The notes under the pieces: model-generated
What the model saw: only the letters and a program-made list of their open reading frames with translations
What the model was told of the DNA's origin: nothing
Databases searched by the model: none
In this document: piece by piece, positions 1,874 through 29,037 of the stretch
Numbering within the stretch: position 1 is the first letter of the stretch
Layout of the letters: every line of letters starts with the position of its first letter
From: Minisyncoccota bacterium
GTDB taxonomy: Bacteria > Patescibacteriota > Minisyncoccia > UBA6257 > 2-01-FULL-56-20
NCBI GenBank assembly: GCA_025449695.1
Contig: JANWIW010000013.1
Location: forward strand, 1-56,023
Direction: 5' to 3'
DNA: 56,023 nt
Position numbers and translations under genes: made by a program

Positions 1874-1990
1874 TGTCGGCACATCCTACTTTCCCCGATA
1901 AATCGAGTATCATCGGACATGCAGCGTTTCACTACTCTGTTCGGAATGGGAAGAGGTGGTTCCACTGCATATAAAGCACCGACGCTTAAA
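1870..1990 (-). rRNA. rrf: 5S rRNA
   Basis: The reverse complement contains CCCATTCCGAACAGAGTAGTGAAACGCTGCATGTCCGATGATACTCG. Helix I pairs GCGTCGGTGC with GTGCCGACAC. Ends are accurate to about +/-5 nt. Confidence 0.85.
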
Positions 1991-2048
1991 TGCCCTAAAC
2001 GGTTCTATGGCTGCGCTCTCGCGCTTCGCGCGAGACCTTAAAGATAGT

Positions 2049-2207
2049 CCCCTTTCGCTAAAGCTTCGGAGGGACATAAGAATCCCTAAAACGCGATTAC
2101 GCGTTTTAAAGATTGTTGCCCCACTTCGCTCTTACCAACGAAGCGGGTGTCCCCCTTCGCTAAAGCTTCGGAGGGACATAAGAATCCCTAAAACGCGATT
2201 ACGCGTT
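2049..2207 (-). repeat. Two ~57-nt direct repeats in the 23S-5S spacer
   Basis: Positions 2049-2106 and 2150-2207 are near identical (ccc(c)tt(t)cgctaaagcttcggagggacataagaatccctaaaacgcgattacgcgtt). Each holds a CCUUCG/CGGAGG hairpin and an aacgcg-atta-cgcgtt hairpin. Confidence 0.85.
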
Positions 2208-2519
2208 AAGGGATTCTAATGTAAGTCAGCATTGGGATGGTTGGCGGGTATTAGTACTCCTTGGCTCAAAACCTCACGGTCCTTACACCTGGAGCCTATC
2301 AACGTCGTAGTCTTCAACGAACCCATACTACCTAATCTTGGAGTGGGCTTCGTGCTTAGATGCTTTCAGCACTTATCCCGTCCGCACATAGCTACCCGGC
2401 GGTTCAGCTGGCGCCAAAGCCGGTAGACCAGAGGTACGTTCAACCCGGTCCTCTCGTACTAGGGTCAACTCTCCTCAAGTAGAAACGCCTGCAGCAGATA
2501 GAGACCAACCTGTCTCACG

Positions 2520-2973
2520 CATGTTCGAGTATTTAGTAACTGGTAATCAGTAACTAGGACTTCGAATCCGTTATTACTAACGGTTTGGACTATACCACCC
2601 TCTCTCGCGAGAGGATCGACGTATTAGCAGCCGCTATTGGCGGGCCGCTCCGTCCATCTTCAAAGAAGATGGAACAAGTCTCTACGGGGTTATATCTCGA
2701 TATCTTTTTCCACTGAGATCCGGACCAAAACACGCCCTTGGGCGGCGTCGATCGGATGATTCAGCGGGCGAAAAGATTGATCGAGGATAAACTTCCCTCG
2801 GAATTGTCCGCAGCGAAGTAGGTTGTGGAACTTCGCAGGGATTTCTCCGATATGAGTCGATTTGTGCACCCATGCGTTGCCGCATGGGGCCGCCGTGTAC
2901 GATGTCTTAACTTTCATTGGCACCCGGTCCAGTTGTTCGGGAGGACGCCTTCGCGCCCCTCGAACGGTTGTTG
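2520..2973 (-). mobile_element. Group-I-type intron in the 23S peptidyl-transferase region (about E. coli U2593), with no convincing ORF
   Basis: The exon reads ...GGGTTCAGACCGT | intron | CGTGAGACAGGTTGGTC. The joined exons match the conserved AGAACGUCGUGAGACAG. The 5' exon ends in U and the intron ends in G. Confidence 0.75.
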
Positions 2974-3622
2974 ACGGTCTGAACCCAGCTCACGTGCCCT
3001 TTTAATTGGCGAACAGCCAAACGCTTGGGAGCTTCTCCACCCCCGCGCTAGGGCGAGCCGACATCGAGGTGCCGAGCGATGCCGTCGCTATGGACGCTCG
3101 GGCATCACTAGCCTGTTATCCCCGGAGTAGCTTTTATCCGGTGTCTCCCACCTTTCTATGAAGAATGGTCGGGTCACTAAGTTCTGCTTTCGCATCTGCG
3201 CGACTTGTAGGTCTTGCAGTTAAGCCGGCTTCCGCCTTTACGCGTCCGGCCCGGTTTCCATCCGGGCTAAGCCGACCTTAATAAACTCCTCCGTTACTTT
3301 TTGGGAGGAAAACGCCCCATTTAAACTACCCACCAAGCACTGTCCCAGCGGAGTTTCCGTGTGGTCATCCGCCGGTGAGACGTCAAAGTCTTGAAGATGG
3401 CTGTTTCATTGTCGCCTCCACGATCCCCGAAAGGACCGCTTCAAAGGCTCGCCACTACGCTACGCATCAAAACTCTGAAATCAATACCAGGCTGCAGTAA
3501 AGCTTCCGGGGTCTTTTCGTCCCGCTGCAGGTATCCCGCGTCTTCACGGGAATCGCAATTTCACCGAGCTCATCTTTGAGACAGTTCTCCAGTCGTTACG
3601 CCTTTCGTGCGCTTCGGAACTT

Positions 3623-4381
3623 CATTCCATTTTCTTATCTTACGATAAGGATCAGACTATATCTTCATCTTTCCCGAAGAAGTTCTTGGATTTCCTCTTT
3701 CGTTTGCTTGCGCTTTCCAGAACCGTTCATCTAATATGTCAAATCCAGAATTTCCAAAAAACCATTCCTGGTCAGATGGAAATCTTGATTTATTTTTAGA
3801 CATATCATTCTGAACAGCTCGAAATCGCGTTGCTTGAACGAAAGCAGAGGAAACCTTCCAAAGTGAGGGATGATACGATGCATGAGATCATCGTGATCTC
3901 GAACTTCGAATTTCACGGTTTTATCTGCATAATCGCGGCGGATGTAGCCGCATCCGAAGTATTTCTGGATGATATCCAAAACTTGACGCCTGTCTTCGTT
4001 TTGGCTCACCGAGAAACTTGGACGCAGTTCCCAGCCCAATAATGCCTTATCCTTCATATTGAAGGTAACCGTAAAACACCCTTCACCATCGACATAACCA
4101 GAAATGTATTCCGGTATGTTCCTTGAACTCTTCGGCAAAGCGGTTGGCGTGTAATAGGCAGAATTTTCTGCGCTATTTCGGCTTTTCGCCTCAGTCGTTA
4201 CGGGGTCATTCCGGCTTTTCGCCGGAAGACTTCCCACGGTATTGTCCAGTTTGCTTGCAGCGCGGCCCATAATTCATTGTGAACAAGCCACAAGAACATG
4301 GCCAACTGTGCATAACTGGATTTCACCGTTATTAGCCAACTTCTTCGATCGAGATTGCTCTCGAAAGGGGCAAGTTCGTTT
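3623..4381 (-). mobile_element. Group-I-type intron at about E. coli U1951, carrying a LAGLIDADG ORF
   Basis: The mini-exon ends ...TTTTCGGGT and the 3' exon resumes AAGTTCCGAAGCGCACGAAAGGCG. The 5' exon ends in U and the intron ends in G. Confidence 0.8.
3731..4270 (-). CDS. LAGLIDADG homing endonuclease (single-motif type), intron-encoded
   Basis: 179 aa. Contains the motif YISGYVDGEGCFTV. Its size and position inside the intron fit an I-CreI-like enzyme. Confidence 0.85.
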   Translation of the reverse strand: MGRAASKLDNTVGSLPAKSRNDPVTTEAKSRNSAENSAYYTPTALPKSSRNIPEYISGYVDGEGCFTVTFNMKDKALLGWELRPSFSVSQNEDRRQVLDIIQKYFGCGYIRRDYADKTVKFEVRDHDDLMHRIIPHFGRFPLLSFKQRDFELFRMICLKINQDFHLTRNGFLEILDLTY

Positions 4382-4401
4382 ACCCGAAAAGGAATTGCGC
4401 T

Positions 4402-5080
4402 CAATTGTGTTACTCTGTCCGCTTCCTTTCGCGGACAACTCTCTATGTCGCCATAGAGTTCGGACTATATCTTCTCCGGCTTGCGCCGGGTCCGGCATAT
4501 AGTCTCTGAGGATTCTAAGAACGGATCTTTCTGCGGTTCGTCCTAGCAGCTAGCTTCAGAATGCTGTTCCATCCCGTTTCCTTGAGATGTTTCTTTTCAT
4601 ACATCATCGCAACAACTTTCTTGAATATCTCAAAATCGTTGCGCTTATATGTTCTGAGTGGAAACTCGTCGAAGAATGGAATGATGACATGATGAAGTTC
4701 TGAGATGGATCGTACGCAATACCGATATAGATGTTCATTATGGTCATCGTATCGTTTGTTAAGCACGATGCTACCGCAACCGAAGAAGTCTTTCGCTTCT
4801 TGCAGTGCAAGCAGGCTCTTCGCGCTCTGCGTGATCACAAACTCAGGAAATATCTGTTTTCCGAACCGAGTACTGGAATTACGGATCACCGAAACAGCAA
4901 AGCATCCTTCGCCGTCCGTGAATCCGGATATCCAGGAACCCATTATTAGCCTTTCCTGCTGATTGTCTGCACCACTCACATTTTCACTGTACTTCCGGAA
5001 GTATAGAACTTCCAAAGGCAGTAGTTGTGGATACTCAGATGTTCCAGCATATAGCCGAATTTTACTAAGGCAAGCAATTC
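4402..5080 (-). mobile_element. Group-I-type intron at about E. coli U1931, carrying a LAGLIDADG ORF
   Basis: The 5' exon ends ...AACTATAATCGTTCTAAGGT and the next exon begins AGCGCAATTCC. The 5' exon ends in U and the intron ends in G. Confidence 0.8.
4515..5015 (-). CDS. LAGLIDADG homing endonuclease (single-motif type), intron-encoded
   Basis: 166 aa. Contains the motif WISGFTDGEGCFAV. The real start may be the internal MGSW. Confidence 0.85.
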   Translation of the reverse strand: MEVLYFRKYSENVSGADNQQERLIMGSWISGFTDGEGCFAVSVIRNSSTRFGKQIFPEFVITQSAKSLLALQEAKDFFGCGSIVLNKRYDDHNEHLYRYCVRSISELHHVIIPFFDEFPLRTYKRNDFEIFKKVVAMMYEKKHLKETGWNSILKLAARTNRRKIRS

Positions 5081-5357
5081 ACCTTAGAACGATTATAGTT
5101 ATCGCTGACATTGACGAGGGCTTCACTCAGTCGGCAGTACGGGTTGCCCCGCACCACTGCCAAGTTTGACCTTCTCGCATCGGTCAGGCGTCACCCCCTA
5201 TACATCCTCTTGCGAGTTAGCAGGGAGCTGTGTTTTTGGTAAACAGTCGCCAGAGAGACTTTCACTGCGGCCTATCGAGGCTGGAAGAAGGAGACGAGAC
5301 GCTCCCACTTAAGGAGGGCCTCGTGCTCCGATTTGTTGTGATCGCGAAGGAAGGGAA

Positions 5358-5434
5358 TGGTTCCCAGGGACGGAATTGAACCGCCGACACGTGGGTTTTC
5401 AGTCCACTGCTCTACCAGACTGAGCTACCTGGGC
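5358..5434 (-). tRNA. tRNA-Phe(GAA)-like gene with encoded CCA, embedded in the 23S insertion
   Basis: GCCCAGGTAGCTCAGTCTGGTAGAGCAGTGGACTGAAAACCCACGTGTCGGCGGTTCAATTCCGTCCCTGGGAACCA. It folds as a full cloverleaf with anticodon loop CUGAAAA. The mismatches are G1-A72 and A31-C39. Confidence 0.7.
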
Positions 5435-5465
5435 ATGTCCCATTCTCCGCATTTTCGCAAAGAAT

Positions 5466-5500
5466 TGGTCGGGGCGACGGGACTCGAACCCGTGACCTCA
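5466..5500 (-). ncRNA. tRNA-like 3' module (variable loop, T-arm, acceptor 3' strand and ACCA; tRNA-Pro-like) with no recognisable 5' half
   Basis: GAGGTC-ACGGG-TTCGAGT-CCCGT-CGCCCCG-A-CCA. I found no adjacent D-arm or anticodon arm. Confidence 0.4.
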
Positions 5501-7350
5501 CGTTCTTCGCTTCGAGGAAACCGCAGAGAGCCGGAAGGAGCGGACGAAGCTTACCCCATCCACCCGCGCTGCCAGGCACCCTCCTGACTCTCCGCGTTTT
5601 CCTCGCAATTTATTCGTAATGGGCCGGCCGGAGGCGCGGTCGCTTACAGGAGGTTCTCCGGCGGCTTTACGCAGAGAACCGTTTTGCGGAAGCTGGGCCT
5701 GACCAGACTTCCAACCCGCCAGCGCGCTGCGCCTACCGGCCTTCCCGAATGTGCTACAACAAAAGAGACAGCATGCGGCAGGGTTTATCTCCCCGCATAC
5801 GACCCCGAGAGGCCGCATCACATCATGTGTGTAGGCAGCATGCGATCAGGAGGCGGTGAGCCGACCCCGATCGTGACGCAGCACTGACTCCTTCTTCCAA
5901 CCTCGACAGGCAGGCCTTATACCGAAGGTACGGCCGCTTTTTTGCCGAGTTCCTTAAAGATGACTCACTCGTTCCCCTTAGGCTTCTCGCCTCACCCACC
6001 AGTGGCGGTTTACGGTACGGTAACCGTACGCTCGTTTTCATTGGACTTTTCTCGGAAGGCTCTTCGGAAACATTTGCCCGGTAAAACCGGACATTCCCCC
6101 GCCCTCGGCCGGAGCCTTCGGGTAGGGATGCCAATCCAATAAGGCACGTCTCTTTATTTCCTTCGCATCCAACTATGATCGTACGGCTGTGCTGGAATAT
6201 TAACCAGCCTGCCATCGGCTGCGGCTTTCGCCATTGCCTTAGGGCCGACTAACCCGTGGTTGATTGCCAGTGCCACGGAAACCTTGGATTTTCGGGGTCA
6301 CATTTTCGCATTGTGATAGTGGTTACTCATGCCAACATTCTCACTTCCTGACGCTCCACAGGCCCTCGCGGGTCCTGCTTCGTCGCAGACAGGAATGCTC
6401 TCCTACCGCTCAGACGTTCCCGAAGGAACGATTGAACCCATAATTTCGGTACTATGCTTAGCCCCGATACATTTTCGGCGCGCCTTGCCGTCGAATAGTG
6501 AGTTGTTACACACTCTTTAAAGGATGGCTACCTCTAAGCCAACCTCCTATCTGTCTGTGGCACGACACTGCCTTTTACACTTAGCATAGATTTAGGGACC
6601 TTAATTGATGGTCTGGGCTGTTCCCCTCGCGTACATGGAGCTTAGCCCCCACGTACTAACTAGAGTACTTGCATGTCCGGTATTCGGAGTTTGACTAAGA
6701 GGCCGGCCTTTCGGCCATTACCCCTCAACCAGTAGCTCTACCCCCAGACATTACGTAGCTCCGCCAGTCCTAAAACTGTTTCGGAGAGAACTAGCTATTA
6801 CCGAATTCGATTAGCTTTTCACTCCTTACCTCAGCTCATCCCAAGGTGTTGCACAACCCACGGGTTCGGTCCTCCCCCCGTGTTTCCACGGGGTTCAACC
6901 TGGCCAAGGCAAGCTCATCCGGCTTCGAGTCTTAGGTATGCGACTGAAATTTTCGCGCTATTAACACTCGGTTTCCCTGCGGGTTCGCCCTCGAAAGGAC
7001 TTACCCTTGCCACATACCTAAAGTCGTTGGCTCATTCTTCAATAGGCACACTGTGGACCTTGCGGTCGCCAGTTCCTTGTAAACAGATGGTTTCAGGTTC
7101 TATTTCAACGGCCTCACCGGCCTGCTTTTCACCTTTCCCTCACGGTACTTGTGCACTATCGATCAACAAATGTATTTAGCCTTAGGAGATAGTACTCCCA
7201 GGTTCCCTCGAAGCTGTTTTACCTCGAGGTACTCAAGAAAAGAAACTGAAGAGTTCATCAGTTTTCGCCTACGGGGCTATCACCCGCTCTGGCGCGCCTT
7301 TCCAGGCGGCTTCGGCTAACCAACGAATTTGTGACTCTTTCTTAGAACAC

Positions 7351-7434
7351 AGGTGTTAGGTGTCAGGTTGCAGGTTATAGAGAAGAATACGATTGTTTCC
7401 GCTCTATGACCTGCAACCTTTAACCTAAAACCTA
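7351..7434 (-). repeat. Low-complexity hairpin insertion in 23S domain I
   Basis: aggtgttaggtgtcaggttgcaggttatagag pairs with ctctatgacctgcaacctttaacctaaaacct. It sits just 5' of the conserved CTGGAAAGGCGCGC...AGCCCCGTA block. Confidence 0.7.
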
Positions 7435-7475
7435 TCTTCCAGCGTTTCATCCTTTCAACACTGATCAAAAGATCA

Positions 7476-7508
<33 letters not shown>

Positions 7509-7747
7509 TAGGGAATGCTTCCACTTGCGTGGACTTTTTTTCATTTCCTCTGGCTACTGAAATGTTTTACTTCACCAGGTTTGCCCCTCCTTGCGGAGGT
7601 TACTGAGGTTTGCTCAATAGGGTTGCCCCATTCGGAAATCCCCGGGTCATCGGTCGCTCCGCACCTCACCGGGGCGTATCGCCGCTACGCGGCGTCCTTC
7701 ATCGCCATTTGTTGTCTAGGCATCCTCCATCTGCTCTTATGCCAACC

Positions 7748-7765
7748 ATCCCAATGCTGACTTAC
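7748..7765 (-). other. 23S leader arm of the processing stem (partner at 2221-2238)
   Basis: Positions 7742-7765 are the exact reverse complement of 2221-2244 (24 bp). The outer 18 bp extend beyond helix 1, as an RNase III-type processing stem does. Confidence 0.7.
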
Positions 7766-21970: not shown

Positions 21971-22648
21971 ATGCGCATTCTGATAGTGGAAGACGAGAAA
22001 CAGATCTGCTCTTTTCTAAAGAGCAGTTTAGAGGAGAAATGCTTCGGCGTGGACATTGCCGAAGACGGGGAGCGCGGCTCCTTTCTCGCCCGAACCGCAA
22101 ATTACGATCTTATGATCCTCGACAATGTGCTTCCCAAAAAGACGGGGCTCGAAGTATGCAGGGAGGTTCGGGACAAGGGCCGGACCGTGCCCATACTGAT
22201 GCTGTCGGTGAAATCCGAAACCGCGACCAAAGTGGACCTCTTGAACGCCGGCGCGGATGATTACCTTATCAAGCCTTTCTCCCTGGATGAGCTTGTGGCA
22301 CGCGTGAATGCCCTCCTTAGGCGGCCCGCAGCGCTTGAGGGCGACGTTATAGAGATCGATGACCTGGTCTTTCACTCCGCAAATTACACCGTATCCCGGT
22401 CCGGCCAGGAAATATACCTTACCCGGAAAGAGTGCATGCTCTTGGCTTATCTTTTGAGACATCGGGGTTTTGTGGTTTCTCGCGGCATGATCCTGGAGCA
22501 CGTCTGGAACATGGATACGGATCCCTTTTCCAACACCATTGAGGCCCATATATCGGGCTTGCGAAGAAAGATCGATGCGCACGGCTCGAAGCGGCTGATC
22601 CATACCGTGCCCGGCCGTGGCTACAAGATCGATGTCTTGATGCGCTGA
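21971..22648 (+). CDS. OmpR-family response regulator
   Basis: MRILIVEDE receiver domain plus a winged-helix trans_reg_C domain (VPGRGYKI). Confidence 0.9.
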   Translation: MRILIVEDEKQICSFLKSSLEEKCFGVDIAEDGERGSFLARTANYDLMILDNVLPKKTGLEVCREVRDKGRTVPILMLSVKSETATKVDLLNAGADDYLIKPFSLDELVARVNALLRRPAALEGDVIEIDDLVFHSANYTVSRSGQEIYLTRKECMLLAYLLRHRGFVVSRGMILEHVWNMDTDPFSNTIEAHISGLRRKIDAHGSKRLIHTVPGRGYKIDVLMR

Positions 22649-22754
22649 CCCGGAACTTCATTTTTTCCTTATGTTTTTTTAATACTTACTTTATAAATTC
22701 TTAAATAGCCCTTTGGAAATGCATCCATGGGACTTTTCCGCGAAGGAGAGCGCA

Positions 22755-23747
22755 ATGCAAGGGAAAAGGAATTTGCTGAAGGAAGTGATCGAGGTCGCAG
22801 ACCTCCCAGATGAAGTTGAACCTGACCGCACATACCGGCTCCTCCCGAAAGACAGGGGTCTCCGGTTCTATGAGGAACGGACGGACCGCAACATCGGCTG
22901 GATCACGGCAGAAGAACAGGCGCTGCTGCGCCGGAGCGTGGTTGCCGTCGCGGGTTGCGGCGGCATGGGCGGAGTCGGCGCGGAGCTCTTGCTGCGGGCA
23001 GGGGTGGGCGAAATCCGTCTGGCGGACCTGGAGATCTTTGATACATCGAATATTCATCGCCAGATCGCAGCAGGCATACAAACGATCGGAACCTCAAAGG
23101 TTTTCGCCACCGCGCGCCGTTTGCGCAACATCACCGACGACACCACCCTCGTGGTCTACCCTCAGGGCGTGACGCCTGAAACCTTCGGGCACTTCGTCCA
23201 CGGTGCCGACCTGGTCCTCGACGAAGTGGAGGCCTGGGCCATCTCCGCGCGCATCGGCCTTCATCGCGAGGCCCGGCATCAAGGGATCCATGTCCTGAAC
23301 TGCAATTCCATTGGCGCCGGTACCCGGCTTTTCCTGTTCACGCCGGAAAGCGACACCATGGAACAATGCCTGGGACTCAGCTATGAAGAGGCCGAGGAAT
23401 TCCGCGTGCGCGTGCGCACGGGAGAAGCGACCACCGGCGAAAAGACGCGCATGGCAGAAGCCGTCATTCGCGGACTTTTGCCGGAAGTGCCCGAGTACTC
23501 TCCGCGGGACCCGTCGGAAAGGACGGCAGGAAATCTGCATCGGCGCCTCTCCGAGGAAGGCAAGGCAATGATATTGGCCTCGAACCCTTACGGCGCCGCG
23601 AGCTTCCTCGTGAACCACTCCCTCTTTCACCTCCTGCGGAACTCCGGGGTTCGCCGCGACATAATCTGGCCGGTGCCAATGCCCGGATACCTTTACCGGG
23701 ACGACCTGCTCGGCGTCCTCAAGGTAGAGCGGCAGAGGTGGTATTGA
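22755..23747 (+). CDS. ThiF/MoeB/E1-like adenylyltransferase lacking zinc CxxC motifs
   Basis: AAGGAG Shine-Dalgarno lies 7 nt before the ATG at 22755. Motifs: ERTDRNIGW, VAVAGCGGMGG, DLEIFDTSNIHRQ, GTSKV, LVLDEVE. Confidence 0.85.
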   Translation: MQGKRNLLKEVIEVADLPDEVEPDRTYRLLPKDRGLRFYEERTDRNIGWITAEEQALLRRSVVAVAGCGGMGGVGAELLLRAGVGEIRLADLEIFDTSNIHRQIAAGIQTIGTSKVFATARRLRNITDDTTLVVYPQGVTPETFGHFVHGADLVLDEVEAWAISARIGLHREARHQGIHVLNCNSIGAGTRLFLFTPESDTMEQCLGLSYEEAEEFRVRVRTGEATTGEKTRMAEAVIRGLLPEVPEYSPRDPSERTAGNLHRRLSEEGKAMILASNPYGAASFLVNHSLFHLLRNSGVRRDIIWPVPMPGYLYRDDLLGVLKVERQRWY

Positions 23748-24313
23748 TGTCCCCGCCGATTATGCTGGCCCAGGATGTCCGCGACCGGCGCCGGGCGCTC
23801 GCATTTGTCCGCAGGCACGTGCGGCAGCTCTATGGGGGCATCCCGCCGCCGGCACAGATCTTTTTCTATGCCGAGCATAGGCGCAGAATCTGCGGCACCA
23901 TCGCCCTGGACTTTGCGGGGCGGGGCGAGAAATTCCTCCTGGAATCGATTTACGGCATCGACTACGACCGGACGCCTTGGCCCTTCGAGCGGGAAAAGAT
24001 CGCGCAGTTCAGCAGATGGTGGACGACCCGGCCGGGGATCGGCGTCCATCTGATGTATGCCGCTCACGCATATGCGCTCGGCCAAGGCAAAAGGTTCGGG
24101 ATCGTGGAGGTCAAGCCCCGGATCGTGGCCCGGGTGGAAGAGTTCGGCATGACGCTCGTAAAGGTGGCCGGAGCTATCCTCCAGATCAAAGGCGAGTCTT
24201 CCCGGGGCGAAAGATACTACGCCATACCGCCCGCTCCGCAACTCTACATGTTCGCTCTGCGCGCCAACGCCGCGGCGTTGGCGCGCTCCATCAGCCTTCA
24301 AGGGGGCCCATGA
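23747..24313 (+). CDS. GNAT-fold-like acyltransferase (resembles the 'thermostable hemolysin' / N-acyl amino-acid synthase type); tentative
   Basis: 188 aa. It is translationally coupled to the ThiF-like gene (TGATG overlap). The segments FSRWW, GKRFGIVEVKPRIV and GERYYAIPP resemble that family as I recall it. Confidence 0.55.
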   Translation: MSPPIMLAQDVRDRRRALAFVRRHVRQLYGGIPPPAQIFFYAEHRRRICGTIALDFAGRGEKFLLESIYGIDYDRTPWPFEREKIAQFSRWWTTRPGIGVHLMYAAHAYALGQGKRFGIVEVKPRIVARVEEFGMTLVKVAGAILQIKGESSRGERYYAIPPAPQLYMFALRANAAALARSISLQGGP

Positions 24314-24320
24314 TTCTTCT

Positions 24321-24364
24321 CCGGCTTTGCGCACATCGCAAAGCCGGATCTTCTTTCGGATTTT
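24321..24364 (+). terminator. Intrinsic terminator after the ThiF/GNAT pair
   Basis: ccggctttgcg-cacat-cgcaaagccgg (11-bp stem) followed by ATCTTCTTTCGGATTTT. Confidence 0.7.
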
Positions 24365-24404
24365 AAGGCTCATTTCATGCTGTTATGATGAATGGGCAAA
24401 CGTC

Positions 24405-26489
24405 ATGAACTGGTTCTATGCCATCGTAGGCATGTTCGCCGCAGGCGACGCCGCGATCGGCGGCTACGTATTTTTCAAGAACCCCTCGCGGCCGCTTCAC
24501 CGCGTGTTTCTAGTGTTCGCTTTCGGCATGGGCCTTGTCGGCGGGGGCATGGTCCTGCTTTTTGCCACTCATCACCTGGTCTTCGACCGGATAGTGTTCG
24601 CCGGCGGTTATCTTATGATCTTCGGGTTGGTGCTCTTGTCCATGAAATTCCCGACCGATAAGAAGATAAGCCCGCGGGTGTGGCTGCTATTCCTCCCGCT
24701 CGCGATCCTTGCCCTGCTGACTCCCTTCGGTTTCCTGGTAAAGAGCGTGATATTCCGTCCGGACGGAATCCTTGAACCGGTGAATGGTCCCGGCATCGGC
24801 TGGTTCGCGATCATCATCGGCGCGTACGTCATCCTGAGCGTCTGGCAGTTTTGGAAGAGCTATCGTTCCCTTTCCGGGGTGCCGCGGTTGCAACTGCAAT
24901 ATCTGGCGTTGGGGGCCGGTACTTTCGCGCTCGTCACCTTCGTATGCAACGTGCTCCTGCCTGCGGTAGGGATATTCGACCTCAATCTACTTGGCCCGGT
25001 CTCTTCCTCGATATTTCTGGGCAGCGTGGGCTACGCCATCGTGCGCCACGAACTCCTGGACATCCGGGTGGTCGTCCAGCGAAGCGCGATCTATCTCGCG
25101 CTGATCGGCATCGTGATCGCTTTCTACCTGGGCATGATCTTTGTGCTCGGGCACCTTTTCGGAAAAGCATTCGATCTGGCCGTGGCGGTAAGCGGCGGGC
25201 TCACCGCCTGCGTCGGGGTGTTCACGGTCCCCATGATCGAGCGCTATTTCCGCCGCTTGACCGATCCCCTCTTCTTCAAAGACACCTACGACTACGCCTC
25301 GGCGCTGGAGGAGCTCAGCGAAATACTGAACCAGAACCTGGAAACCCTGAAAATACTGGAAGAAACCTCCTTGACCCTCGCCCGGTTATTCCGGACTTCC
25401 GTCGTGGAGCTTGCCCTCTCTCCTGATTTTTCGGAACTCCCCCGGCCGGATTCCTCCCGCTACTCCTCTCTTTTGGAGGATCTGCAACGAACGAGGAAGA
25501 TCATAAGGGTAGGCGGTCTCGAAGAGATTCCCCGGGACACAGCTTCTGGGGGAAAAAGAAAGTCGTCATCGGCGGACAAGGCAACGGGAATCGAAGTTGC
25601 CGTGCCGATCATCCTGGCGGAAAAGTTCATCGGCGGATTGCTCTTAGGCCCCAAACGCTCCGGCGAGCCCTACCGTCCGCAAGATATGCGCCTCCTGACC
25701 ACTCTCGCCTACCAGCTGGCGGCAGCCCTCGAAAAAGCGAGGCTGTACGAGGAGGTGCGGGCCCACTCCGAACACTTGGAAGAGCGGGTGCGCGAACGGA
25801 CGGCGGAACTTGAAGGACTGCAGGAAAAAGAGCGCAGCATGATGGCGGATATCTCCCATCGCCTCCAGACGCCCCTTACGGTGGTCAAAAGCAAGCTGGG
25901 GTCTTTGCGGATCGAGCCGGTCATGAAGCCGCATCTCGAGATCTTCGAGCGTTCCATCGATGACATCTCCAAATTCATCTACGATCTCATGAACCTCGTG
26001 AGGCTTGGCATGCCGCACCAAAAGGCCTCGCGGGTGCCGGTCGACACAAGCGCGCTGATCGAGAACATCATCGAATACTTTCAGGTGCTTGCGGAAGAGA
26101 AGAATATGAAGGTAGAGGCGGCGATCTCTCCGGATGTCTCCGTGCTCGGGAATAAGGACATGCTCGAAGAGCTCGTCACCAATCTTCTCAGCAATGCCTA
26201 CAAGTACATGGGCGATGCCGAACCGAAGAAGATATGGGTCCGCCTGTGGCAAGAACAAGGACAGGTCGTCCTTGAAGTGGAAGATAGCGGGCCGGGCATC
26301 CCGCGGGACGATCTGAGGCGGATCTTCGAACGGTCTTACCGGGGCCATCGCTCACAGAATTCCGACGGCATGGGCCTTGGTCTCGCCATTACGAAGCGCA
26401 TCGTGGAAAATCACGGCGGCGCTATTGCCATCCAAAGCGAACCCGGTCAGGGTACAAAGGTAACCGTCACTTTCCCCGCAGCTCCGTAG
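24405..26489 (+). CDS. Sensor histidine kinase: multi-TM N-terminal domain, GAF-like domain, HisKA and HATPase
   Basis: It has about 6-7 N-terminal helices, a GAF-like end (VPIILAEKFIGGLLLGPKRSGEPYRPQDMRLL), the H-box DISHRLQTPL and the G-box GMGLGLAI. Confidence 0.9.
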   Translation: MNWFYAIVGMFAAGDAAIGGYVFFKNPSRPLHRVFLVFAFGMGLVGGGMVLLFATHHLVFDRIVFAGGYLMIFGLVLLSMKFPTDKKISPRVWLLFLPLAILALLTPFGFLVKSVIFRPDGILEPVNGPGIGWFAIIIGAYVILSVWQFWKSYRSLSGVPRLQLQYLALGAGTFALVTFVCNVLLPAVGIFDLNLLGPVSSSIFLGSVGYAIVRHELLDIRVVVQRSAIYLALIGIVIAFYLGMIFVLGHLFGKAFDLAVAVSGGLTACVGVFTVPMIERYFRRLTDPLFFKDTYDYASALEELSEILNQNLETLKILEETSLTLARLFRTSVVELALSPDFSELPRPDSSRYSSLLEDLQRTRKIIRVGGLEEIPRDTASGGKRKSSSADKATGIEVAVPIILAEKFIGGLLLGPKRSGEPYRPQDMRLLTTLAYQLAAALEKARLYEEVRAHSEHLEERVRERTAELEGLQEKERSMMADISHRLQTPLTVVKSKLGSLRIEPVMKPHLEIFERSIDDISKFIYDLMNLVRLGMPHQKASRVPVDTSALIENIIEYFQVLAEEKNMKVEAAISPDVSVLGNKDMLEELVTNLLSNAYKYMGDAEPKKIWVRLWQEQGQVVLEVEDSGPGIPRDDLRRIFERSYRGHRSQNSDGMGLGLAITKRIVENHGGAIAIQSEPGQGTKVTVTFPAAP

Positions 26490-26558: not shown

Positions 26559-27113
26559 TTACCCCTTGCCTGCATCTAAGGCTGCTCTCGCTTCCTCGAG
26601 CAACGGATCGAAGTAATACTTCTTGAGGTGGCGCCCTACGGCGTCGCTCGCTGCATAGAGCGCCTCTGTCCGAAGAATATTGAGATCTGGAGACGTATCC
26701 TGCAACCCCTTCTCAAGTTCCCGGATTTCCGCATCCAATGAGAGGAGCTTGGAATCGAAGTCTCTTGCGCTCTCCTCTGACACGCGCTCCATCTCTGCAA
26801 TGGCACTGGAAAGTCTCTGCGGCTCCACGCCCGGCCGGATAACCTTTCTAATTCCCTTTTCCCCAAAGACATCCGGGTATGCCTGGCTCGTGATGCGGTC
26901 GAAGGCCGCATTCATAGCTTGATTCACGCTCCTCCCCAGCTCCTTCTTAGCCTGGTAGAGCGCCACGAGCCTTCCAAGGCTGGGGTCCGATTCTAACCCG
27001 GAGCTTTGATCCGCAACCGGTCCTTCGCCCTGCTTGCGCAGCGCGGACTCAGCATCTTCGTCCTGGAGGCCGGTGCCTTCAAACCCTTTCTTGGACATCT
27101 CTATATAATACAA
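26559..27113 (-). CDS. Hypothetical acidic helical protein
   Basis: 184-aa ORF with GC3-rich codons. No family recognised. Confidence 0.55.
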   Translation of the reverse strand: MYYIEMSKKGFEGTGLQDEDAESALRKQGEGPVADQSSGLESDPSLGRLVALYQAKKELGRSVNQAMNAAFDRITSQAYPDVFGEKGIRKVIRPGVEPQRLSSAIAEMERVSEESARDFDSKLLSLDAEIRELEKGLQDTSPDLNILRTEALYAASDAVGRHLKKYYFDPLLEEARAALDAGKG

Positions 27114-27262
27114 GCATCTTGGTAATTCGTCTAGAATAATCTAGATAATTTGCTCCGATACAAAGCGCCTCCAGCATCCACCAGCCGGGAGAGCAGCGCT
27201 TGTCTTCTCTTCGCCGAGCCCTCATTTTATTTTCAGAGGATTTGCTTTATAGTTCTCGAATT

Positions 27263-28222
27263 ATGACTGACGACGCTATCGTGATCGAGGATCTCAGAAA
27301 GAATTTCAAGGACGTCAAAGTCCTGGAAGGCATAGACCTGAAGGTGGAGCGCGGTACCGTGCTCGCTCTTTTGGGACCGAACGGCGCGGGCAAGACGACC
27401 ACCATCAGGATCTTGAGCACCTTGCTCCAGCCTGATGACGGCAGGGCCTATATCAATGGCCATGACGTCGTAAAGGACCCGGACGCGGTGCGGGCGAGCA
27501 TAGGGCTGACCGGCCAGTACGCGGCGGTGGACGAGCTTCTGACCGGCAGGGAGAACCTGGAAATGATGGGGCGGCTCTACCATCTTTCCAAGGCGGACAG
27601 CAGGACCCGGGCGGAGGAAATGCTCGCTGAGTTCGAACTCACGGACGCCGCGAACCGGGCGGTCAAGACCTACTCCGGGGGCATGAAGCGGCGTCTGGAT
27701 GTCGCCGCCAGCCTGATCGCCGCGCCTCCCATTCTTTTCCTGGATGAGCCTACCACGGGCCTCGATCCAAGAAGCCGGCTCAAGGTCTGGGACATCGTCC
27801 AGCAGCTCGTGGACGCCGGCGCGACCATATTCCTCACGACCCAGTACCTGGATGAAGCGGATAAGCTCGCGGACCGCATCGCGGTCCTGGATCACGGCCG
27901 CATCATCGCGGAAGGGACTGCGGACGAGCTTAAGGAAAAAGTGGGCAAGGACAGGCTGGAAGTGACTGTGACGAAGGAAAGCGATTTCGATGCGGCCTTG
28001 CGGGCCGTGGAGGGCGCCGCGGCGCAATCCGACCCCGAGGAGCGGAGGGTGAGCGTGGCCATGGAAGGCGGAGTGCACGAAGTGAAAGAGCTTCTGGACC
28101 GGCTGGAACGGGCGGGCGTGAAGATCGAGGGGCTGGCTCTCCATAAGCCGACCCTGGACGACGTCTTTCTCCATCTGACCGGGCACGAAGCCATGGAAAA
28201 CGACCAAGTCACGAAAAAATGA
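27263..28222 (+). CDS. ABC transporter ATP-binding protein (DrrA / ABC-2 type)
   Basis: Walker A GPNGAGKTT, signature YSGGMKRRL, Walker B ILFLDEPTTGLD. It overlaps the next gene by 4 nt. Confidence 0.9.
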   Translation: MTDDAIVIEDLRKNFKDVKVLEGIDLKVERGTVLALLGPNGAGKTTTIRILSTLLQPDDGRAYINGHDVVKDPDAVRASIGLTGQYAAVDELLTGRENLEMMGRLYHLSKADSRTRAEEMLAEFELTDAANRAVKTYSGGMKRRLDVAASLIAAPPILFLDEPTTGLDPRSRLKVWDIVQQLVDAGATIFLTTQYLDEADKLADRIAVLDHGRIIAEGTADELKEKVGKDRLEVTVTKESDFDAALRAVEGAAAQSDPEERRVSVAMEGGVHEVKELLDRLERAGVKIEGLALHKPTLDDVFLHLTGHEAMENDQVTKK

Positions 28223-29037
28223 GCCGCAGCAAATTCGCCATAGGCAGCGTCAAGCCAGAACAACGCTCCAAGCTCTACTGGATGTTTTCCGACTCCGGAG
28301 TGCTCATCAAGCGCAGCTTGAGCCACATCGTGAAGAACAGGGACCAGGTCCTGGGTCTCACCATCCAGCCGATCATGTTCATGCTTCTTTTCCGGTATGT
28401 CTTCGGAGGCGCGATCAATACCGGCAGCGTAAGCTACGTGAACTTCCTGGTGGCCGGGATCCTCATCCAAAGCGCGGCCTTCGGAGCCCTGACCACATCG
28501 CTCAGCGTCGCGACGGACCTCCAAAAAGGGCTCATAGACCGGATCAAGTCTTTGCCTATCGTGGGCTGGGGCCTGCTCATGGGACATGTGGTCGGGGATC
28601 TCGCGAGAAACCTTATCCAATCGCTCGTCATGATCGGCATAGGCCTCCTCGTGGGCTTCCGCCCGAGCGCATCCCCGTACGAATGGCTCCTTATCGCCGG
28701 GATCGTGCTGCTTTTCACCTTCGCCATATCCTGGATCGCCGCCATCATGGGACTCGTAGCCCGTAGCGTCGAATCGGTCCAATGGATGGGGTTCTTCTTG
28801 GTGTTTCCTCTCACTTTCGCGTCCGCCGCCTTCGCTCCCACGCAAACGATGGCCAAATGGCTCCGCGTCTTCGCGGAAAACCAGCCGGTGACCCACGTCA
28901 TCGAAGCGGTTCGCGCGCTCATGATCGGTACCCCGATAGGCAACCATGCTTGGCTCGCGGCCGTCTGGTGCATCGGCATAATCGCCGTGGCCATGCCTTT
29001 CGCGACGCATCTGTTCCGAAAATACGGCGGCAGGTAA
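28219..29037 (+). CDS. ABC-2 type transporter permease
   Basis: 272 aa with six predicted helices, coupled to the ATPase gene. Confidence 0.85.
   Translation: MSRSKFAIGSVKPEQRSKLYWMFSDSGVLIKRSLSHIVKNRDQVLGLTIQPIMFMLLFRYVFGGAINTGSVSYVNFLVAGILIQSAAFGALTTSLSVATDLQKGLIDRIKSLPIVGWGLLMGHVVGDLARNLIQSLVMIGIGLLVGFRPSASPYEWLLIAGIVLLFTFAISWIAAIMGLVARSVESVQWMGFFLVFPLTFASAAFAPTQTMAKWLRVFAENQPVTHVIEAVRALMIGTPIGNHAWLAAVWCIGIIAVAMPFATHLFRKYGGR

Follow-up and report, generated by a model that had tools for sequence, protein, structure and literature searches.

We report that four adjacent genes, all on the forward strand of a 56-kb stretch of DNA (56,023 nt; hereafter the window) from an ultra-small CPR/Patescibacteria bacterium, encode, in order, a response regulator (RR), a ThiF-family adenylating enzyme, a GNAT-fold N-acyltransferase and a sensor histidine kinase (HK). 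We favour, with a probability of roughly 55%, the reading that they form a conserved CPR/Patescibacteria cassette that is regulated, probably self-sensed, and makes a small molecule derived from an N-acyl amino acid. We know of no chemical signalling system in CPR/Patescibacteria, and the cassette looks like an undescribed one.

The first gene (21971..22648) encodes an OmpR/PhoB-type RR of 225 aa with Response_reg (E=2e-26) and Trans_reg_C (E=9e-25) Pfam domains. After a gap of 106 bp, the ThiF-family gene (22755..23747; 330 aa) starts at an ATG at 22755 preceded by a GGAG Shine-Dalgarno sequence, and is coupled through a TGATG overlap at 23745-23749 to the GNAT-fold gene (23747..24313; 188 aa); a second gap, of 91 bp, separates this pair from the HK gene (24405..26489; 694 aa), whose product combines approximately nine transmembrane (TM) segments with GAF, HisKA and HATPase_c domains, as judged from Pfam and the hydropathy profile. 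The four open reading frames and the translational coupling proposed in a previous sequence-only reading are therefore real. That reading also described the inner pair as inserted into, and splitting, a two-component system, which we do not sustain, because GC content is not anomalous and the lineage inherited the four genes in this order, which is the conserved state.

By its sequence, the 330-aa protein is a ThiF-type adenylating enzyme without catalytic Cys or zinc. It matches PF00899 (E=7e-27) over residues 44-208, its translation contains every adenylation motif that had been quoted, and residues R42, G67-G72, D91, R102, K115 and D156 are invariant. The protein has three Cys in total, with no CxxC pair, catalytic Cys, Zn site, rhodanese or other extra domain, as had been claimed. 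Its AF2 model (pLDDT 92.7) has AclA, ThiF, PaaA, MoeB and MccB as Foldseek neighbours, and its best NCBIfam matches are PRK08223, PRK14851, PRK14852 and PRK07877 ('Rv1355c family'), all below cut-off. The match to the Rv1355c (TrzS) family model reaches E=5.5e-20; the TrzS-type and PRK08223 scores are nonetheless far below their cut-offs, which counts against an oxazolone-type reading. The C-terminal region (residues 200-330) was matched in just 57 of 1.84e9 cluster representatives. The enzyme is predicted to activate and/or cyclise an N-acyl amino acid in an ATP-dependent manner.

Pfam matches of the 188-aa product were weak and did not reach the cut-offs: T_hemolysin (E=0.0023) and FeeM (E=0.0095). 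The top PDB matches of its AF2 model (pLDDT 91.2) were MesI, BjaI, TofI, LasI, RpaI and FeeM (E 6e-7 to 1e-5, TM ~0.6); as modelled, the protein has the fold of AHL synthases and of the FeeM type of N-acyl-amino-acid synthase, in agreement with the GNAT-like resemblance noted in the sequence-only reading. From 44 members of this GNAT family, 15 match T_hemolysin and eight match FeeM, and some relatives of the cassette carry GNATs matching Pfam Autoind_synth, Acetyltransf_5 or FeeM.

To survey the co-occurrence of these genes, we compared 53 related species-level genomes, nearly all of them Patescibacteria. The GNAT gene is directly downstream of, or fused to, the ThiF gene in approximately 47 of the 53, and the fusion proteins (495-544 aa), which involve two different GNAT types, keep the order ThiF then GNAT. 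Adjacency, fusions and fold together support a functional pairing of a carboxylate-adenylating ThiF-like enzyme with an N-acyltransferase of AHL-synthase/FeeM fold. A homologous kinase TM region occurs downstream of the pair in 45/53 loci and a co-oriented RR orthologue precedes the ThiF gene in 34/53, with both orthologous partners flanking the pair in 33 genomes. The cassette in the window is collinear with a Liptonbacteria chromosome (70% identity for RR, 70% for ThiF, 54% for GNAT and 52% for HK). The closest relatives of the pair, at 76-78% identity, are carried by mobile elements that have no two-component system, and therefore the enzymes also work without this sensor. These mobile copies sit among defence- or competition-type genes (TIR, NYN, caspase-helicase), and a conserved small ORF of 72-84 aa adjoins the mobile pairs as well as the pair of locus L021. 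Elsewhere, the partners of related ThiF genes are N-acyl, formyl or carbamoyl transferases, and several clusters add exporters and substrate-supply genes; examples are a plasmid cluster of R. etli (alpha/beta hydrolase, ThiF, GNAT, DMT, EctB, FadD), a cluster of Legionella norrlandica (ThiF, GNAT, hydrolase, MFS, MarR) and a Chitinivibrionales genome with FeeM plus ThiF. At one distant locus, the related ThiF gene follows a gene for an AMP-ligase/carrier protein. No flavin oxidase was found fused or adjacent to the pair.

The inner pair carries its own expression signals, as the sequence-only reading had supposed. Three direct repeats at 11-bp intervals (22678..22706; TTTAATA at 22678, CTTTATA at 22689 and CTTAAAT at 22700), with a weaker extra copy, CCTTATG, at 22667, lie upstream of the ThiF gene, where a search for OmpR-type repeats had been suggested. 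The pattern CTTWAWA-N4-CTTWAWA occurs at this one place in the 56-kb window, against 0.03 expected, and a [CGT]TTTA[CGT]A repeat at lag 11 recurs in 13/31 genome loci and 11/25 independent metagenome loci (0-6 for other lags). We infer that this is a putative RR binding site in a regulated promoter, probably bound by the OmpR-type regulator of the cassette. Downstream of the GNAT gene, an intrinsic-terminator-like hairpin with a T-rich tail (24320..24364) closes the unit ahead of the kinase gene; its perfect 12-bp stem, with 8 GC pairs, spans 24320-24348, and its folding energy of -25.8 kcal/mol (z=-3.7) was equalled by 0/200 shuffles. A perfect-stem hairpin followed by a T-run occupies the GNAT-HK gap in 17/35 related loci, against 0.5 expected from shuffles. 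ThiF and GNAT would then form a transcription unit of their own, from the repeat-bearing promoter to the strong terminator.

The link of the pair to the flanking sensor system proved stronger than previously supposed. The approximately nine hydrophobic segments of the kinase fall within residues 1-280 and are joined by short loops. In a reciprocal search, homologues of this TM region were usually preceded by a GNAT resembling N-acyl-amino-acid synthases, while the partner enzyme beside the GNAT varied (ThiF, methyltransferase or decarboxylase); likewise, when the genes immediately upstream of homologous kinases were examined in metagenomes, most of the 43 encoded proteins matched FeeM, T_hemolysin, Acetyltransf_5 or Autoind_synth. 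Kinase TM similarity tracks GNAT type when controlled for the kinase core and ThiF (score ratio 0.54 vs 0.91, p=1.6e-5; permutation test, p 2e-4), although the number of independent lineages behind this co-variation is small and phylogeny could account for part of it.

In our preferred reading, the GNAT-fold enzyme would use an acyl thioester to N-acylate an amino acid (or a related amine acid), by analogy with AHL synthases, FeeM and OxzA/TyzA/TrzA. [quoted passage not shown] This lipophilic product is itself what the 9-TM/GAF kinase most likely senses, so that the cassette would be an autoinducing synthase-sensor module. Several further points count against this explanation: the oxidase, a defining part of known oxazolone pathways, is missing; saturated azlactones are labile; the gene order is the reverse of oxzAB; the closest relatives of the pair do without the sensor; and the source of the acyl donor is doubtful, as many CPR genomes lack fatty-acid synthesis.

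It is possible, although rather unlikely, that the same enzymology makes an effector, a membrane-active or antibiotic lipo-amino acid with a 'hemolysin'-like action as for FeeM-type N-acyl tyrosines, whose production an epibiont, as we take the source bacterium to be, would trigger via the two-component system on receiving some host or envelope cue that has nothing to do with the product. The proximity of the GNAT family to Pfam 'thermostable hemolysin' and FeeM, the exporters of related clusters and the company of the mobile copies all speak for an effector, as do the antimicrobial N-acyl tyrosines in literature cited in PMC12856293. However, we found no exporter or immunity gene in the CPR cassette, the acyltransferase type co-varies with the sensor membrane domain, and a kinase family usually found beside such a synthase is more readily explained by product sensing than by an unrelated cue.

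We consider it improbable that the order of reactions is reversed, with the ThiF-like enzyme adenylating a fatty or amino acid and the GNAT passing the acyl moiety of the adenylate on to an amine; the two would then work together as a CoA-independent amide synthetase that needs no thioester donor. Such a scheme would suit the gene and fusion order, the AMP-ligase/carrier protein of the one distant locus and the poverty of CPR genomes in acyl-CoA and ACP metabolism. Conversely, AHL synthases, FeeM and OxzA use thioester donors, and the GNATs paired with a methyltransferase or decarboxylase in homologous cassettes imply that the GNAT can obtain its donor without ThiF. Moreover, characterised ThiF-family enzymes, which act on peptide or protein C-termini, tRNA t6A or N-acyl amino acids, never adenylate a free fatty acid (2025 review, PMC12596934).

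Modification of a peptide or protein C-terminus, of the MccB/PaaA/E1 type, appears more doubtful still; the substrate would be encoded elsewhere, for instance by the 72-84-aa ORF, and the GNAT would modify it or confer immunity. The peptide-modifying AclA, PaaA and MccB are among the best structural neighbours and the small ORF does adjoin some pairs, but its C-terminus is not conserved and no homologue occurs in the window or in most cassettes. In line with the earlier failure to find a ubiquitin-like carrier or microcin-type peptide, the 56-kb window contains no credible GG-ended small ORF, and no conserved micro-ORF fits the short intergenic gaps, whose repeats, Shine-Dalgarno sequence and terminator take up the space that a conserved precursor peptide would need. 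Additionally, the N-terminal peptide-clamp domain of MccB is missing, the ThiF domain starting at residue 44 versus ~111 in MccB. Finally, an ordinary ThiF/MoeB sulfur-carrier activator with these neighbours by chance is hardly credible: matches to ThiF and MoeB through the generic domain reach E=1e-11 to 1e-6, but the protein scores only 79.5 bits against the ThiF cut-off of 275 and 58 against the MoeB cut-off of 266, there is neither CxxC, catalytic Cys nor carrier gene, and the association with GNAT and kinase genes persists across phyla.

The sequence-only reading did not recognise the cassette as a described system, which holds for its organisation but not for its chemistry. N-acyltransferases and ThiF cyclases are known to make N-acyl oxazolones, requiring ATP and a conserved ThiF Asp (10.1101/2020.06.11.147165; PMC12856293; reviewed in PMC12596934), with cyclisation demonstrated experimentally for OxzB, TyzB and TrzS and a signalling role suspected by the authors, although unproven (10.1101/2020.06.11.147165; PMC12856293). 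For CPR bacteria, we found no published account of a cassette that lacks the oxidase and sits inside a two-component system. The closest in described chemistry are OxzA/OxzB (Pseudoalteromonas rubra), TyzACB and TrzAS (Mycobacterium tuberculosis). These systems need a flavin-dependent oxidase (nitroreductase), whereas the cassette contains no oxidase domain or gene, and hence its product cannot be their desaturated oxazolone. The cassette also differs in the distinct helical C-terminal region of its ThiF, in the gene order (ThiF then GNAT, the reverse of oxzAB), in a T_hemolysin/FeeM-like GNAT that is likened to OxzA by described chemistry and not by sequence, in the nesting of its genes inside a two-component system, and in its CPR host, as opposed to Proteobacteria and Actinomycetota.

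TcdA (ct6A), MccB and PaaA share the predicted mechanism, carboxylate adenylation followed by intramolecular attack, for which a catalytic cysteine is unnecessary, but act on tRNA or ribosomal peptides with extra recognition domains that the cassette ThiF lacks. LuxI-type AHL synthases and FeeM, which the 188-aa protein resembles most in structure although it falls under every Pfam cut-off, have the same predicted chemistry, N-acylation of an amino-acid-derived amine; LuxI itself lactonises, using SAM, whereas in the cassette a separate ATP-dependent ThiF would supply ring closure or activation. The kinase has the architecture of PrsK, the XrtA/PEP-CTERM histidine kinase, with many TM segments followed by GAF and the kinase core, and its TM+GAF part gives a weak collinear match to TIGR02916 (E=0.0023; 16.6 bits, cut-off 300); its partner regulator is, however, OmpR-type rather than NtrC-type, and there is no exosortase context. 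With respect to LuxM/LuxN, CqsA/CqsS and AgrBD/AgrCA, homology is limited to generic two-component domains, the cassette kinase adds a cytoplasmic GAF domain, and signal, sensing and density dependence are only putative for the cassette. Yet, as in these synthase-sensor quorum-sensing modules, the synthase genes adjoin a multi-TM, short-loop histidine kinase, the sensor domain diversifies with the synthase, and the RR and the repeats upstream of the synthase unit suggest autoinduction.

The four genes lie on the forward strand of the window in the order response regulator (RR, 21971-22648; Response_reg and Trans_reg_C domains), ThiF-like gene 1 (22755-23747; ThiF domain PF00899 at residues 44-208, E=7e-27), GNAT-like gene 2 (23747-24313; sub-threshold T_hemolysin and FeeM matches only) and sensor kinase (HK, 24405-26489; GAF, HisKA and HATPase_c domains, with about nine hydrophobic segments and short loops in the first 280 residues). 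All four ORFs, the motifs listed for the two enzymes by the sequence-only reading, and the TGATG stop/start overlap of the ThiF and GNAT genes were recovered as it had described them; a GGAG Shine-Dalgarno sequence stands ahead of the ATG at 22755.

An alignment of ThiF relatives was scanned against one genome per species, yielding 80 loci, 53 of which form the close family, almost exclusively from Patescibacteria. The pairing of the two enzymes is general in this family, with the GNAT gene immediately 3' of the ThiF gene, or fused to it, in about 47 of the 53 loci. A kinase whose membrane region is homologous to residues 1-330 of the window kinase (phmmer E=1e-18 to 1e-89) follows in 45; on the other side, 34 loci have an OmpR-type regulator ahead of the pair, and the two flanks occur together in 33. 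When the neighbouring genes of the 53 loci were clustered, nothing else recurred strongly; related loci occasionally carry an additional SAM methyltransferase, and one of them an arginine-deiminase/DDAH-like gene. The fusions encode proteins of 495-544 aa with ThiF N-terminal and GNAT C-terminal. The two enzymes thus belong together, in a cassette whose distribution is CPR-wide yet sporadic.

The enzyme genes had been read as inserted between the regulator and its kinase. This could not be sustained, and a horizontal island in the window is likewise ruled out: the GC content is unremarkable, the gene order is kept across loci, and a contig of Candidatus Liptonbacteria carries a collinear copy (identity to the window of 70% for the regulator, 70% for ThiF, 54% for the GNAT and 52% for the kinase) adjoining rpoBC, S6, SSB and S18.

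Several features of the surroundings deserve mention. In 11 of the 53 loci (L015, at 6725-7165, and 10 others), the regulator gene is adjoined, on either strand, by a conserved ORF situated about 1.3 kb 5' of the ThiF gene; the ORF encodes about 150 aa, has no Pfam match, and is either a system component or local synteny. In the window, the ORFs flanking the cassette encode secreted or peptidoglycan-binding proteins, a DUF1801 protein, a protein with coiled coils and an exporter of the ABC-2 family. The exporter, a DrrA/DrrB-like pair at 27200-29037, is situated about 700 bp 3' of the kinase, past the coiled-coil ORF (26559-27113), which is divergent. In this genome the pair could serve to export the product, but other loci do not keep it beside the cassette. 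Farther upstream, on the minus strand within 1874-7752, lies a 23S rRNA gene that matches the full Rfam model (2037 bits) and is expanded to 5.5 kb. A group I intron (3633-4391) and two LAGLIDADG-like ORFs (3731-4270 and 4515-5015) contribute to the extra length, and, oddly, a tRNA-Phe(GAA) call (5358-5434) falls inside the 23S span; the 5S gene occupies 1874-1983. An intron-bearing, lengthened 23S rRNA gene is a hallmark of CPR/Patescibacteria.

The expression signals attributed to the enzyme pair were borne out. The spacer between the regulator and ThiF genes contains three direct repeats phased by 11 bp (at 22678, 22689 and 22700), a pattern occurring once in the window (0.03 expected). The motif [CGT]TTTA[CGT]A is repeated at lag 11 in 13 of 31 genome loci (other lags, 0-3) and in 11 of 25 independent metagenome loci (other lags, 0-6), the latter set taking in cassettes with other cargo and cargo-free RR-HK pairs. 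After the GNAT gene, a strong terminator at 24320-24364 consists of a perfect 12-bp hairpin (folding energy -25.8 kcal/mol, z=-3.7) and a T-rich tail; a perfect-stem hairpin plus T-run is found in the GNAT-HK gap of 17 of 35 loci, against 0.5 in shuffles. The phased repeats and terminator-like hairpins indicate that the enzyme pair is a separate transcription unit, nested between the signalling genes and probably under the control of the regulator. An 18-codon micro-ORF (MILLRLCAHRKAGSSFGF; 24310-24366) overlaps the GNAT stop codon and traverses the terminator hairpin; it is probably a chance occurrence, because the gap elsewhere is too short or too different for conservation.

Gene 1 retains an intact adenylation site, R42, the G67-G72 loop, D91, R102, K115 and D156 being invariant in 39 sequences. 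As had been reported, it lacks CxxC pairs and any extra domain: it has three cysteines, Pfam recognises the ThiF domain alone, and cysteines beyond the P-loop are not conserved in the family. A fold search with its model (pLDDT 92.7) aligned AclA, ThiF, PaaA, MoeB, UBA5 and MccB. The C-terminal region of about 130 residues, previously called unassigned, is indeed rare as sequence (57 of 1.84 billion cluster representatives, all ThiF proteins or ThiF-GNAT fusions), but structurally it consists of the canonical terminal strands together with an inserted helical segment. The nearest NCBIfam models are PRK08223 (the best score, 136 bits; cut-off 266), PRK14851, PRK14852 and the PRK07877 'Rv1355c family' (71 bits; cut-off 476); the first three may be TyzB-like and OxzB-like models, a suspicion to which we give no weight as evidence.

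Other roles known for such enzymes were weighed. An activator of sulfur carriers, of the ThiF/MoeB type, would share the fold; gene 1 scores only 79.5 bits against the ThiF cut-off of 275 and 58 against the MoeB cut-off of 266, has no CxxC, and has no partner carrier in the 56-kb window, which contains no credible GG-terminated ORF, just three spurious ORFs in alternate frames, in agreement with the sequence-only reading. A peptide-adenylating enzyme like MccB of microcin C also aligned in the fold search; the ThiF domain begins at residue 44 in gene 1 and at about 111 in MccB, and the 106- and 91-bp gaps of the cassette are filled by the repeats and the terminator, with no conserved micro-ORF across loci that could encode a short precursor peptide. 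An anti-phage defence role, including that of CBASS/Bil-type E1-E2 systems, was rejected, as PADLOC matches to gene 1 are confined to the generic E1 adenylation core (about residues 37-221; best match, residues 37-126, E=3e-14) and the GNAT has zero PADLOC matches.

Gene 2 is poorly described by sequence, with 18.2 bits for T_hemolysin and 16.2 bits for FeeM (cut-offs, 27 bits); among 44 members of its family, 15 match T_hemolysin and 8 match FeeM. A search of the PDB with the single sequence gave no match, and a profile search gave marginal generic acetyltransferases only, so that a fold search was required; a profile of the GNAT alignment gained few further relatives from a large protein collection. 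The AlphaFold model (pLDDT 91) is nearest to FeeM and to the AHL synthases MesI, BjaI, TofI, LasI, RpaI and EsaI, confirming the acyltransferase fold suspected for the 188-aa protein. A LuxI-family AHL synthase is nonetheless discarded, with no Autoind_synth (PF00765) match at family threshold, although the fold similarity is real. The GNATs of the fusions are of two types, type A resembling gene 2 and type B matching Acetyltransf_5, Autoind_synth and FeeM.

The link between kinase and synthase was approached reciprocally, by scanning metagenomes with the membrane region of the kinase. The genes preceding homologous kinases encode ThiF plus type A GNAT, ThiF plus type B GNAT, a methyltransferase plus type B GNAT, an AdoMet-decarboxylase-like protein plus GNAT, a pyruvoyl or PLP decarboxylase, or a ketosynthase; a regulator immediately before the kinase is rare. 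When 43 proteins encoded directly upstream of such kinases were scanned against Pfam, 11 matched FeeM, 10 T_hemolysin, 9 Acetyltransf_5 and 3 Autoind_synth. The RR...HK frame also encloses other cargo in place of ThiF in metagenome loci (L112, L113, L116, L127-L130, L143 and L148), for example a SAM methyltransferase with a FeeM/Acetyltransf_5-type GNAT, sometimes fused, or else an AdoMet-decarboxylase-like protein plus GNAT, a pyruvoyl histidine-decarboxylase-like protein, a PLP Orn/Arg decarboxylase or ketosynthases. The cassette seems to be a modular family, whose variants exchange ThiF for methyltransferases or decarboxylases.

In the genome set, the similarity of the membrane region to that of the window kinase, expressed relative to the kinase core, has a median ratio of 0.54 with a non-type-A GNAT versus 0.91 (p=1.6e-5), and the similarity of the regulator and ThiF is not reduced in non-type-A loci. 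Likewise, sensor domains are more alike pairwise in loci with the same GNAT type, a relation that persists once ThiF and the kinase core are regressed out (permutation p=2e-4). This co-variation, seen in few independent lineages, fits a sensor that would read the product. Two traits are shared with pairs of autoinducer synthase and sensor: the genetic coupling of synthase and membrane kinase, and a sensor whose diversification goes along with that of the synthase. The PrsK/PrsR system of PEP-CTERM does not apply, with 16.6 bits for TIGR02916 (cut-off 300) and a regulator of OmpR type, not NtrC type.

The enzyme pairs most similar to that of the window (L001-L008 and L089-L090; ThiF identity 76-78%) lack the two-component genes. 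They are cargo of integrative or mobilisable elements, close to or between the relaxase (Replic_Relax) and the coupling protein (TrwB/TraG) where these are present, with serine recombinases, TIR, NYN, HepT and caspase-DEAD helicase genes as neighbours, and one is in a Thermoanaerobaculia MAG, which suggests that the module was exported from a Liptonbacteria-like lineage. A conserved helical ORF of 72-84 aa (H..DYFGTLATxLDLLRQ...LxYLQxxYxI, with a variable basic tail; L001:6661-6885, L004:6735-6971, L005:10727-10945, L021:6101-6325 and L089:5670-5924, in coordinates local to each locus) accompanies ThiF-GNAT on mobile elements and, in one CPR cassette, immediately precedes the regulator. The ORF was not found in the window by tblastn, has no Pfam or NCBIfam match, and could be an alternative regulator or adaptor.

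More distant ThiF relatives, of about 30% identity and equal length, adjoin other N-acyl, formyl and carbamoyl transferases, usually together with exporters and regulators. Plasmids of Corynebacterium (L092) and Lactiplantibacillus (L091) carry a divergent wHTH/ArsR regulator, ThiF, a formyltransferase and an MFS transporter, and Streptomyces a divergent regulator-like gene, ThiF and a formyltransferase-like gene. The four-gene unit recurs on Gram-positive plasmids, with a ThiF about 30% identical to that of the window over its full length; among L073-L086, a similar regulator-ThiF-formyltransferase layout was recognised by eye from ORF translations in several actinobacterial loci (L073, L082), and the regulator-ThiF-formyltransferase-MFS unit appears uncharacterised. 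Small plasmids of Staphylococcus epidermidis, exemplified by an 8.5-kb mobilisable one (L093), combine MFS, ArsR, ThiF and an 'aspartate carbamoyltransferase', which could form an N-carbamoyl amino acid plus ThiF pathway, perhaps of hydantoin type; 13 similar Staphylococcus plasmids share the ThiF match, the gene set being known from L093 alone.

In Rhizobium etli, plasmid pRetIE4771a (L094, 3950-10499) encodes a LysR regulator, an alpha/beta hydrolase, ThiF, a GNAT N-acyltransferase, a DMT transporter, the diaminobutyrate transaminase EctB and a long-chain acyl-CoA ligase (FadD). The cluster is predicted to supply diaminobutyrate and acyl-CoA, and reads like a complete pathway to a product derived from N-acyl-diaminobutyrate, possibly a lactam; profile comparison of its GNAT with the family of gene 2 gave an uninformative probability of 2%. 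Legionella norrlandica has ThiF, GNAT, hydrolase, MFS and MarR genes, and in a Chitinivibrionales genome a bona fide FeeM (E=2e-29) adjoins ThiF. From their annotated functions, all these distant sets would fit an N-substituted amino acid plus activation of its carboxylate. In an alphaproteobacterial MAG (L022:9102-16946), a polyketide-synthase-like ORF of 2616 aa directly follows ThiF, replacing the GNAT.

The proposal that the pair makes a small acylated or adenylated molecule tied to the sensor system is thus supported and sharpened. Substrates, product and sensing, as we infer them, would be as follows. A GNAT resembling N-acyl amino acid synthases, with a variable partner enzyme, would make signals derived from N-acyl amino acids; with a ThiF cyclase as partner, the product would be a ring similar to that of AHLs (an oxazolone, a lactone or a lactam), formed in an ATP-dependent and SAM-independent manner. 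Each signal would have its own 9-TM kinase as reader, and feedback on the promoter of the synthase would come from the OmpR-type regulator. Such a family of CPR signalling cassettes, serving cell-cell or epibiont-host communication, is a tentative reading, to which we assign a probability of about 0.3. CPR bacteria are reduced and mostly host-attached, and no chemical communication system is known in them. If the reading is true, the CPR radiation would have its first system of the quorum-sensing type, and the ThiF/N-acyltransferase chemistry of Mycobacterium and Proteobacteria would acquire a physiological role. The recurrent, compact synthase-sensor cassette offers a handle on how CPR bacteria sense kin or hosts and may point to new ThiF chemistry, in which azlactones, lactones or lactams would form with no oxidation step.

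Our literature searches found nothing tying ThiF/E1-like enzymes to thermostable hemolysin or N-acyl amino acid synthase, and nothing on ThiF plus GNAT in Patescibacteria, a CPR homoserine lactone synthase, AclA or 9EGB. The closest precedent is that of the oxazolone synthetases, according to a 2025 review the sole type of ThiF-like enzyme validated on a small molecule (PMC12596934). OxzA converts acyl-CoA to N-acyl tyrosine or phenylalanine, and OxzB, a ThiF-nitroreductase fusion, carries out ATP-dependent cyclisation and desaturation of its product (10.1101/2020.06.11.147165). In M. tuberculosis, TyzA, the oxidase TyzC and the stand-alone ThiF cyclase TyzB perform the same chemistry on tyrosine, and TrzA/TrzS (Rv1356c/Rv1355c) on tryptophan; the ThiF Asp is essential, and blocking oxidation leads to an observed saturated cyclised intermediate (PMC12856293). 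Like the N-acyltransferase genes of OxzAB, TyzACB and TrzAS, the gene for the GNAT of AHL-synthase/FeeM fold adjoins the ThiF gene, here overlapping its stop codon, and the adenylation site of the window ThiF is intact, with the conserved Asp in place; the window pair, on its predicted functions, thus shares their N-acyltransferase plus ThiF logic. Unlike them, it has no flavin-dependent oxidase (nitroreductase), fused or adjacent: none was found as a domain of gene 1 or among the window neighbours, and no extra family recurs in the 53 loci. For the oxazolone products, a role in signalling has been put forward, unsupported by evidence (PMC12856293; 10.1101/2020.06.11.147165). The window pair further differs from the oxazolone systems in lying between the genes of a two-component system. 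This oxidase-less ThiF/GNAT module, wired between a regulator and a co-diversifying kinase, provides a genomic argument for a signalling role.
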